Part shown: piece after piece, positions 3,787 to 4,450 of the stretch
Layout of the letters: the number at the start of each line of letters is the position of its first letter
Numbering within the stretch: the first letter of the stretch is position 1
Sequence record: PQ436005.1
From: Escherichia phage vB_Eco_K-02
Strand: one strand, 5' to 3'
Length of the DNA: 44,896 nucleotides
Notes under the pieces: model-generated
The model's database searches: none
Seen by the model: only the letters and a program-made list of their open reading frames with translations
What the model was told of the DNA's origin: nothing
Made by a program: the position numbers and the translations under genes

Positions 3787-4080
3787 TTATTTATGACGCC
3801 AGATGTATTGTCGTCTCTGTGGTTTCGTCGGAATATCATCGTATCCCAGCGATTTCCAGTAATTAAATAACCGATTAGCGATTGCAGCGCGCTCCTGCGT
3901 TTTAAACTCACCAAGATTCACAGCCTTCCCGTTCTGGAATCCACAGGCGCGGATAGCTTTACGTCTGTCCTGAATCTCTGGGTACAGCACGTTACGGCGA
4001 CGCTTGTATATTCGTGTATTCGCTCTCGGCGACAGCGGCGCAAGGCCGCTCCGTTTCAGGATGTCAGTTGCAAGGCTCAT
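3787..4080 (-). CDS. hypothetical basic protein
   Basis: ORF in gene chain; Arg/Lys rich. Confidence 0.45.
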   Translation of the reverse strand: MSLATDILKRSGLAPLSPRANTRIYKRRRNVLYPEIQDRRKAIRACGFQNGKAVNLGEFKTQERAAIANRLFNYWKSLGYDDIPTKPQRRQYIWRHK

Positions 4081-4256
4081 AGGTCCAGAATCTCGCGCGC
4101 TAATTCATCCGTCTTCCAGTCGCACGGACTGTTTACTACCTGCTTAGCAAGCTCGCGCAGTTTACGCGCCAGCTCCGCGTAGTCTTCGTATAGGACCCAG
4201 CGCCCTCCCGCGGCCTGAAACATATCGCCGTGGGCGTTTTCGTATCTATGCACCAT
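4077..4256 (-). CDS. small protein, paralog A (MVHRYE...YEDYAELARKL)
   Basis: ATG at 4256-4254 with GGAGG SD; N-terminal pattern shared with the adjacent gene. Confidence 0.45.
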   Translation of the reverse strand: MVHRYENAHGDMFQAAGGRWVLYEDYAELARKLRELAKQVVNSPCDWKTDELAREILDL

Positions 4257-4450
4257 CACTCCACCCCTCCCACATGTGTAACTGACCCACAGTTCGCGCA
4301 CTCAACGTAATCAGGAAACTGGTCCTTGTATTTCTGTAACTCGGCTTCGAGTTTCGCGTAATCTTCGTACTCTATGTATCCACCATCATCGCACGGGTTT
4401 ACCGAGCCACCTTTCTGATGAAACAACTCTAACTCGTATCTCTGTACCAT
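4256..4450 (-). CDS. small protein, paralog B (MVQRYE...YEDYAKLEAEL)
   Basis: ATG at 4450-4448 with AGGAG SD; tandem paralog of 4077..4256; C-terminal CxxC. Confidence 0.45.
   Translation of the reverse strand: MVQRYELELFHQKGGSVNPCDDGGYIEYEDYAKLEAELQKYKDQFPDYVECANCGSVTHVGGVE

Follow-up and report, generated by a model that had tools for sequence, protein, structure and literature searches.

Introduction

Domain-level mosaicism is a familiar property of phage genes, seen in the exchange of receptor-binding and tail-fiber domains and in the "novel joints" of lambdoid genes. Among described proteins, the lambdoid "Ea" and nin-region products (P22-type EaE, HK97 gp37, and HK620 hkaH; phrog_492/368/614) offer a comparable case: they likewise come from small or medium-sized, non-essential genes in mosaic regions, and are located between genes for replication or recombination and genes for lysis or integration. 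Here we describe two adjacent small genes, designated B and A, on the minus strand of Escherichia phage vB_Eco_K-02 (PQ436005.1; the whole stretch of 44,896 nucleotides that was analyzed is referred to as the window). Their products share an N-terminal module (N-module) of about 40 residues, in which a conserved start and a conserved hinge enclose a hypervariable cassette, followed by C-terminal modules (C-modules, or tails) that are unrelated to each other. Mosaic, fast-evolving small accessory genes are a well-known kind of thing in phages, and the features of such mosaics recur here, with recombination at short conserved sequences around a variable module and chimeras between near-identical genomes. 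The locus differs in that about 20 codons are exchanged inside a 60-aa non-structural protein, and in that the anchors are common to two tandem genes and to many tails.

PHROGs places B and A in two separate families, neither with an assigned function, and this obscures both the N-module that they have in common and the combinatorial exchange of cassettes and tails. The match of B to phrog_29624 is full-length (E=2.9e-28, residues 1-64 to profile positions 1-60 of 60), and B has no match to phrog_37174. A matches phrog_37174 through its tail (E=1.1e-7, residues 18-57 to profile positions 28-67 of 69) and phrog_29624 only weakly, through residues 1-39 (E=0.014). Lambdoid-type kin in which the same N-module precedes a coiled coil are the "EaE" protein of Skatevirus Pu29, P0297, and the Enterobacter prophage protein P0325. 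The lambdoid EaE/HK97 gp37 proteins are 120-230 aa long and carry a C-terminal TPATDAFLAEVRAQGV-type domain, whereas A and B end at 59 and 64 residues without such a domain and give no phrog_492/368/614 hits; the N-terminus of HK97 gp37 also differs from the N-module.

Results

A Shared N-Terminal Module

The window is the genome of a Kagunavirus-type siphophage. Gene B (4450..4256, minus strand; codons 4450..4259, stop 4258..4256) encodes a protein of 64 aa (MVQRYELELF...CANCGSVTHVGGVE) consisting of the N-module, a short helix, and a C-x-x-C-G-S-x-T-H knuckle. Gene A (4256..4077, minus strand; codons 4256..4080, stop 4079..4077) encodes 59 aa (MVHRYENAHGDMF...AREILDL), with the N-module followed by a helix-loop-helix. 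Both proteins are acidic (pI of the two, 5.2 and 4.45). An earlier note on this DNA had assigned each gene its own Shine-Dalgarno (SD) sequence, and both can be read from the sequence on the minus strand: AGGAG at 4462..4458, 7 nt 5' of the ATG of B, and GGAGG at 4270..4266, 9 nt 5' of the ATG of A and within the G-G-V codons of B. The stop of B and the start of A overlap in TGATG, and the stop of A overlaps the start of the next gene, which encodes a 97-aa protein, in ATGA.

The motif on which the earlier note had based its description of the genes as tandem paralogues, MV(H/Q)RYE...GG...YEDYA(E/K)L, is present in both proteins, and pairwise alignment and profile comparison place the similarity far above chance. 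The BLASTP alignment (A residues 1-39, B residues 1-44) has 15/44 identities (E=9e-6). The Smith-Waterman score of A against B is 55, compared with a shuffle mean of 21.4 (sd 4.0; 0/20,000 shuffles reach 55), and no score higher than 38 is seen for the remaining products, 40 aa or longer, of open reading frames (ORFs) in the window. In an hhalign comparison, the B family (64 sequences) and the A family (18 sequences) match with a probability of 98.6% (E=6.9e-16), over 40 columns only. A hidden Markov model of the N-module gives exactly two hits in the window, B and A, at 64.1 and 53.6 bits (E=4.8e-19 and 9e-16). Each protein begins with M-[VI]-x-[RK]-[YF] at residue 1-3 (MVQRY in B, MVHRY in A), and each has the hinge G-x-[WYF]-V-x-Y-[ED]-D-Y-x-x-L-E followed by a helix (GGYIEYEDYAKLE in B, GRWVLYEDYAELA in A). 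The similarity ends at about residue 40, beyond which the C-terminal halves are unrelated. Judged by these comparisons, the adjacent genes are true paralogues, as had been proposed, with the paralogy restricted to the N-terminal ~40 residues; the part of the proposal that does not stand is a plain tandem duplication of whole genes.

Coding constraint was assessed in a set of 27 related loci (24 from IMG/VR and 3 from GenBank), retrieved by similarity to B or to the region. Across these loci the C-module of B has 5/7/18 variable sites at codon positions 1/2/3, and summed pairwise codon differences amount to 1500 synonymous versus 535 non-synonymous. Both genes are under purifying selection outside the cassette and therefore are real coding genes. 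Homologue lists comprise 19 close homologues for A, 373 homologues for B, and 494 for the N-module profile. The ORFs are very short and no library assigns them a function, so that one might attribute the A/B similarity to chance and deny that they are genes at all. The shuffle, hhalign, and third-position results refute this idea, as do the hundreds of homologues in which third-position variation is seen and the correctly spaced SDs, and we give it essentially no weight.

Cassettes, Hinge, and Tails

The homologues in all lists follow a single plan: an MVxRY start, a variable segment, a hinge with the consensus G-x-[W/Y/F]-V-x-Y-E-D-Y-A-x-L-E, and one of several unrelated tails. In B (all positions on the minus strand), the 5' anchor consists of codons 1-5 (MVQRY, ATGGTACAGAGATAC; 4436..4450), of which M1, V2, R4, and Y5 are at least 90% conserved. 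It is followed by the hypervariable cassette, residues 6-27 (ELELFHQKGGSVNPCDDGGYIE; 4370..4435), delimited by identity across the 27 loci and by comparison with the metagenomic locus L016 (see below). The hinge, residues 28-35 (YEDYAKLE; 4346..4369), forms the junction of N-module and C-module, with Y28, D30, Y31, L34, and E35 conserved. The C-terminal module (AELQKYKDQFPDYVECANCGSVTHVGGVE; 4259..4345) is nearly invariant as a protein in 64 aligned homologues, and its DNA varies synonymously. In A (minus strand), the cassette, residues 6-22 (ENAHGDMFQAAGGRWVL; 4191..4241), is a near variant of an allele named ENDHGDMF; the hinge, placed by alignment at residues 23-30 (YEDYAELA; 4167..4190), has 14/15 nt the same as the hinge of B; and the C-terminal module (4080..4166), of type A1, is the part of A that diverges most from Escherichia phage vB_EcoS-phiEc4 (phiEc4), which has type A2 (RKLRNFADQVLYAPCSKVTEET...).

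Cassettes range from 12 to 30 residues and cannot be aligned between alleles. At least 33 alleles occur among 141 proteins, and at least 7 of them are found with both A-type and B-type tails. At least 8 tail types were distinguished: A1 (RKLRELAKQVVNSPCDWKTDELAREILDL), present in gene A of the window; A2 (RKLRNFADQVLYAPCSKVTEEMA.EILGI), carried by phiEc4; B (AELQKYKDQFPDYVECANCGSVTHVEGVE), a short helix with a CxxC...H knuckle; and C to G, five additional helical types. The ENDHGDMF cassette is joined to all 8 tail types and a second cassette, LLQGGL, to 7. Within the ENDHGDMF allele group, variation is concentrated at positions 15, 16, 19, and 22, directly ahead of the hinge. Across the 27 loci, 52-56% of bases are identical in the cassette of B versus ~89% in its flanks.

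The gene order in these loci is a ~67-aa membrane-type gene (phrog_3766), slot 1 (B-type), slot 2, the 97-aa gene (phrog_9632), and the holins, where slot 2 holds an A-, C-, or D-type gene or is empty; because the loci were retrieved via similarity to B or the region, the constancy of slot 1 is no independent estimate. Gene A aligns in only ~45% of the 27 loci, and by tblastn 112 phage records contain a B-type gene and 49 an A-type gene. The cassette of B and gene A are the divergent or absent patches between phages that are otherwise 85-100% identical, in agreement with the rapid evolution of the locus that had been suggested earlier.

The explanation offered with that suggestion was a recent tandem duplication of one small early gene, the copies diverging in an arms race as host-takeover or anti-defense factors. 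It is favored by the adjacency and translational coupling of the genes, by the homology of their first ~40 residues, and by the variation of the locus between relatives. Several observations are nevertheless difficult to accommodate. The homology does not extend into the C-terminal halves, the exact stretches shared by the two copies inside one genome are only 8-15 nt long, and the other module types found in slot 2 have relatives outside Kagunavirus. Cassette alleles common to both slots suggest, moreover, that the copies of one genome do not group together. Since the module family also occurs in lambdoid, Skatevirus, and Wifcevirus genomes, the paralogy is old and at the level of the domain, and we regard a recent duplication as quite improbable. 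With the same N-module on at least 8 tails, and in lambdoid prophages, Skatevirus, and Wifcevirus, the description of B and A as two members of a domain family that shuffles fits better than that of tandem duplicates.

Recombination at the Anchors

Natural recombinants locate the points of exchange. In Raoultella phage RP180, a single gene is a DNA chimera whose 5' part is identical to A at 58/66 positions (37/81 to B) and whose 3' part is identical to B at 90/99 (39/100 to A); the switch point is a 15-nt hinge sequence, TACGAAGAYTACGCG, which is part of the hinge of B. The window and L016 are 99-100% identical over 3600-4320 and from 4461 on, and 37-40% identical across the cassette of B, with a sole mismatch block at 4349-4436. 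The left edge of this divergent block, 4436, lies at the MVQRY anchor. Compared with phiEc4, the window is ~100% identical except for a block at 4098-4252 (gene A), where differences are densest in the tail (A1 versus A2). Because L016 differs only in the cassette of B and phiEc4 only in gene A, the window itself is a mosaic, with a B like that of phiEc4 and an A like those of L016 and Bas70. Three further variants, P0221, P0244, and P0236, are fusions that resemble unequal crossovers between the slots and look like products of such events. Taken as a whole, the comparisons mark the locus as a hot spot of recombination within a domain family that is large and undescribed.

No template copy of either cassette was found elsewhere in the window, where the 15-nt hinge was the only match, and no repeats were found within 3700-5700 besides an unrelated 77-nt duplication. 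Mutagenesis by a diversity-generating retroelement was considered and rejected because the window contains no cassette template copy; a reverse transcriptase was not searched for there.

That the breakpoints fall exactly at the anchors also suggests a different view of the conserved sequences, in which the MVxRY start and the YEDYAxLE hinge would be retained chiefly because recombination uses them as anchors, the family would be a by-product of mosaic exchange, and the N-module would add nothing to protein function. The N-terminal placement of the module, seen in almost all of the listed representatives, would fit this view. Against it stand the conservation of the amino acid sequence over 936 clusters despite diverged DNA and the synonymous differences found even between A and B (GAC/GAT, CTG/CTC). 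The conserved positions are, in addition, patterned as a hydrophobic core and a helix N-cap, in a region that is folded in structure predictions. We rate a pure anchor role as slightly more improbable still than a recent duplication.

Breadth of the Family

Among 1.84 billion representatives, the N-module profile detects 936 clusters (50% identity) at E<=1e-3. In almost all of the 150 representatives that were listed (45-297 aa long apart from one of 832 aa), the match begins no more than a few residues from the N-terminus. The domains that accompany the module include helical hairpins, long coiled coils, zinc ribbons, DUF551-like domains, and an EaE/HK97-gp37-type domain. A scan of genome contigs with the N-module alignment gave 43 pattern matches, none of which was confirmed by tblastn with the 45-aa first sequence of the alignment.

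The N-module is carried by the "EaE" protein of Skatevirus Pu29. The adjoining gene (locus L027, 2950-3297) contains a weak internal match to the module with a CxxC motif (KLKRYELDMGGCDSCGQDCG...GEFVMFDD; E=6.5e-4), and tandem module-bearing genes may thus also exist outside Kagunavirus. A 191-aa protein of Wifcevirus WFH (locus L028, 2501-3076) has the N-module twice, at residues 1-39 and 71-91; its C-terminal segment is DUF551-like (phrog_9174/11995), and a similar insert is present in the Kagunavirus gene upstream of B in locus L019. In the Enterobacter lambdoid prophage gene for P0325, located in the nin region between dnaB and ninB, the cassette EFELYHCNGGE is similar to Kagunavirus alleles.

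Across 121 family representatives, no Pfam or NCBIfam family covers the module, the only matches being coiled-coil noise, and PHROGs splits the representatives among phrog_29624, phrog_3592, and others. Ten distant members all have "hypothetical" names in their source databases. The large MVxRY-YEDYAxLE family is previously undescribed as such, although phrog_29624 covers it in part.

Predicted Structures and Comparison with Zinc-Binding Proteins

In the AlphaFold2 (AF2) model of A (predicted local distance difference test, pLDDT, 80.3), strands at residues 12-14 and 20-22 form a hairpin and are followed by helices at 23-41 and 47-56. The model of B, which is of low confidence (pLDDT 64.7), contains strands, a helix at 28-44, and a knuckle hairpin. 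Both models place the start of the helix at the hinge, and the conserved positions would fit a small hydrophobic core with a helix N-cap. The strand-helix-helix order in A recalls ribbon-helix-helix proteins, an idea that was rejected because no such protein is among the listed Foldseek hits.

In the Rad50 zinc hook, a CxxC motif at the tip of a coiled coil holds one zinc common to two chains. By analogy, the helix of B runs directly into a single CxxC that could not by itself complete a four-ligand site; B and Rad50 have no sequence or fold match.

The CxxC motif also invites comparison with the Lar family (PF14354; phrog_3592, "Lar-like"), small phage and prophage proteins with CxxC motifs to which B has sub-threshold matches. 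As a Lar-like zinc-ribbon restriction-alleviation protein, B would shield the phage DNA from type I restriction. B gives weak matches to PF14354 (E=0.11, 13.2 bits) and phrog_3592 (E=0.02), which improve to E=0.0049 and 6e-4 for a longer form of B that has an additional CxxC, and 18/121 family representatives match phrog_3592. The 13.2 bits are, however, far under the Pfam gathering cutoff of 28.6 bits, and A has no PF14354 match. A true Lar-family protein, from locus L031, reads CPFCG...C...C...AIRAWNRR, whereas B has a single CxxC (CANC) and no C-terminal AWNRR-type motif; hhalign of the B family against this protein gives a probability of 9.4% over 12 columns. The phrog_3592 match of the Wifcevirus protein lies entirely inside the N-module (residues 3-43) and outside any zinc ribbon, and Kagunavirus isolates are reported to be highly sensitive to restriction-modification (RM) systems (PMC11990801). 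As B lacks the four-cysteine, two-knuckle arrangement with A-x-x-A-W-N-R-R, the Lar-like label was rejected, and a restriction-alleviation role of this type is very improbable.

Gene Neighborhood and Expression

The region 3700-4800 is 95.5% identical to phiEc4 and has matches in 276 phage records, mostly from Escherichia and Salmonella phages of the Kagunavirus/Guernseyvirinae group. Annotated relatives in GenBank have the same 64-aa and 59-aa coding sequences, labeled hypothetical proteins, within a long minus-strand series of small genes that extends from a divergent control region, adjoining the helicase-primase gene, to the holin and endolysin genes.

The nearest promoter-like sequence upstream of B and A is a sigma-70-like motif ~1 kb away, CTTGCACA-N10-ATAG-N2-TACTATTCA (5533..5501, minus strand). 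This 33-nt motif (-35 TTGCAC, 17-nt spacer, -10 TACTAT) occurs in five copies in the window versus 0 expected by chance, placed by a motif scan at 5501-5533 and 6625-6657 on the minus strand and at 30398-30430, 39633-39665, and 41793-41825 on the plus strand. The five copies are probably the phage's own set of promoters for the host RNA polymerase. A terminator-like hairpin with a T-run (TACGCTGCTACACAGCAGCGTA; 5647..5626, minus strand) lies just ahead of the 5533..5501 motif and marks the boundary between the first leftward block of small genes and the one containing B and A. Between this promoter motif and the holin genes, no terminator is predicted. The earlier note had assigned the genes to an early region, a placement that finds no support as stated, because their promoter unit continues into the holin and endolysin genes: with the unit reading on toward the lysis cassette in the absence of a predicted terminator, "early" is unproven. 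The supplements of a Kagunavirus time-course study (PMC12645636; 57 genes annotated) do not contain the sequences of B or A.

The position of the genes gives rise to the main rival explanation, in which A, B, or both serve the phage's own programme as small regulators or assembly factors rather than being directed at the host. They could act, for example, on lysis timing or on the 97-aa, holin, and endolysin genes that follow, and the cassette would be an unconstrained loop. B and A lie directly upstream of the conserved 97-aa gene and the lysis cassette, probably on the same transcript, and translational coupling runs throughout the block. It is this location, together with the nearly invariant tail of B, that makes a lysis or late-programme role the main rival. 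About half of the related loci lack gene A, however, and an unconstrained loop does not predict discrete alleles that are reused with different tails in unrelated phage types; nor was a DNA-binding or other regulatory fold detected by Pfam or Foldseek. Weighing both sides, we consider such a role improbable, although less so than the duplication or anchor explanations.

The 97-aa gene (3787-4080, minus strand; phrog_9632, no assigned function) stands directly between A and the holins and is ~85-92% conserved in all related loci. A possible resemblance of a GFQNGKAVNLGEFKTQERAA stretch in its product to AP2-type DNA-binding domains finds no support in Pfam or in a PDB sequence search. Directly upstream of B is the conserved ~67-aa gene (4452-4655, minus strand; phrog_3766, no assigned function), whose product has a hydrophobic N-terminus, MTSILFIWVLSAG...; the mechanical ORF list gives it 98 aa, from an upstream ATG.

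In the per-base profile of the 27 loci, conserved stretches of 85-95% identity are broken by variable patches, namely gene A, the cassette of B, the 3' two-thirds of the next upstream gene (4650-5050), and 5150-5450. The last two align in only 7-50% of the loci, with flanks of ~90% identity, and the transcription unit as a whole is a patchwork in which conserved anchors alternate with variable inserts. A perfect 77-nt tandem duplication (4893-4969 = 4970-5046, 100% identical) is located in the minus-strand gene at ~5169..4652. Since 77 is not divisible by 3, the duplication frameshifts this upstream, phrog_6094-type gene and yields the overlapping ORFs 4753..5169 and 4652..4978. Phages phiEc4 and vB_Eco_K-01 have a single copy of the unit and an intact gene, and the duplication is either a very recent event or an assembly artefact. 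At ~4790-4830 (minus strand), a linker, (E)QSGC(R/C)KED(T/A)QEC.H.W, followed by a CxxCG knuckle joins one to three zinc-ribbon repeats in the upstream gene. The linker and knuckle are found in loci L006, L008, L016, L019, L020, and L022, in the upstream gene and in B extensions, and are appended to B-type genes in some phages, such as P0036, P0042, and L006 (100 aa). They constitute a further exchangeable module of the same gene block.

Discussion

The explanation that we favor is that B and A are two members of a large family of small modular phage accessory proteins. Taken as a whole, with the function proposed below, it falls just short of an even chance; its anatomical and recombinational part is held with high confidence, and a binding or anti-host function, suggested by the sequence patterns, is a more tentative proposition than the whole.

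Each protein begins with a mini-domain of ~35-45 residues, built from the MVxRY strand, the cassette as a hairpin or loop, the G-x-[W/Y/F]-V-x-Y strand, and the helix start at E-D-Y-A-x-L-E, and the hinge is the joint to a C-terminal module that can be exchanged. The conserved residues Y5, G, W/Y, V, Y, D, Y, and L have the appearance of a core and helix cap in a tiny fold, a possible scaffold for the display of a variable surface. A second contact or a means of oligomerization could come from the C-module; in B, the CxxC knuckles of two chains could share one zinc ion. Diversity arises by recombination at the start-codon region and the hinge, so that cassettes and C-modules are exchanged independently of each other, from phage to phage as well as from one tandem slot to the other, and generate combinatorial sets. 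On this model the proteins may be specific binders, inhibitors, or adaptors directed against polymorphic factors of the host, of defense systems, or of rival phages, and discrete cassette alleles would be kept and traded under frequency-dependent selection. We prefer the binder interpretation to an unconstrained loop because the cassettes exist as discrete alleles that recur with many different tails, also in phages of unrelated types.

A number of results weigh against this functional part of the explanation. Pfam and NCBIfam scans of A, B, and their neighbors gave no family match, and PADLOC-DB gave nothing at E<=1 for A, B, or their two neighbors. The low confidence of the B model limits its use, and Foldseek found nothing for it in the PDB; for the A model, the best match in the PDB and BFVD has E=0.4, with generic helical hairpins only. 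A profile search of PDB sequences returned nothing with E<0.1 and no solved structure of a relative. The proteins are not mentioned in the BASEL Kagunavirus section, the Kagunavirus transcriptome paper and its supplements, or accessory-gene screens and their supplements, and the motif strings of the family are absent from the text of the papers searched. The reported RM sensitivity of Kagunaviruses makes a broad anti-restriction role unlikely. The hypervariability of the cassette might be that of a weakly constrained loop and not a product of selection. Finally, a B-type gene with a near-invariant tail is present in every retrieved locus, a count that is circular because retrieval was by B similarity; a ubiquitous B with an invariant tail could have a housekeeping rather than an arms-race role.

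A further-reaching form of the modular-family explanation is that the N-module is a specificity domain, new and widespread among the accessory proteins of enterobacterial phages, a tiny scaffold with long-lived, discrete cassette alleles of ~20 residues that are traded between virulent and temperate phages and freely joined to effector or anchoring tails. Every phage would in this way put together a set of binders of its own against polymorphic proteins of host defense or of rival phages, giving a combinatorial counter-defense at the level of the population. We consider this unlikely at present, although above any of the rivals. If true, its logic would be comparable to that of polymorphic toxin/immunity modules.

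Unassigned small phage genes are the main pool from which anti-defense and host-takeover factors have come. The locus described here is a compact and testable case, a domain of 936 clusters with sharp boundaries and no Pfam, NCBIfam, or structural entry, in which natural chimeras already equal cassette-swap experiments between near-isogenic phages. Kagunaviruses have small genomes (41-44 kb), and the BASEL collection includes seven isolates that grow on E. coli K-12 and have been phenotyped against defense systems, so the locus is practical for genetics. If the cassettes are not specificity determinants, B and A would be an ordinary example of mosaic accessory genes; if they are, the locus would offer a general handle on how phages diversify small binders.

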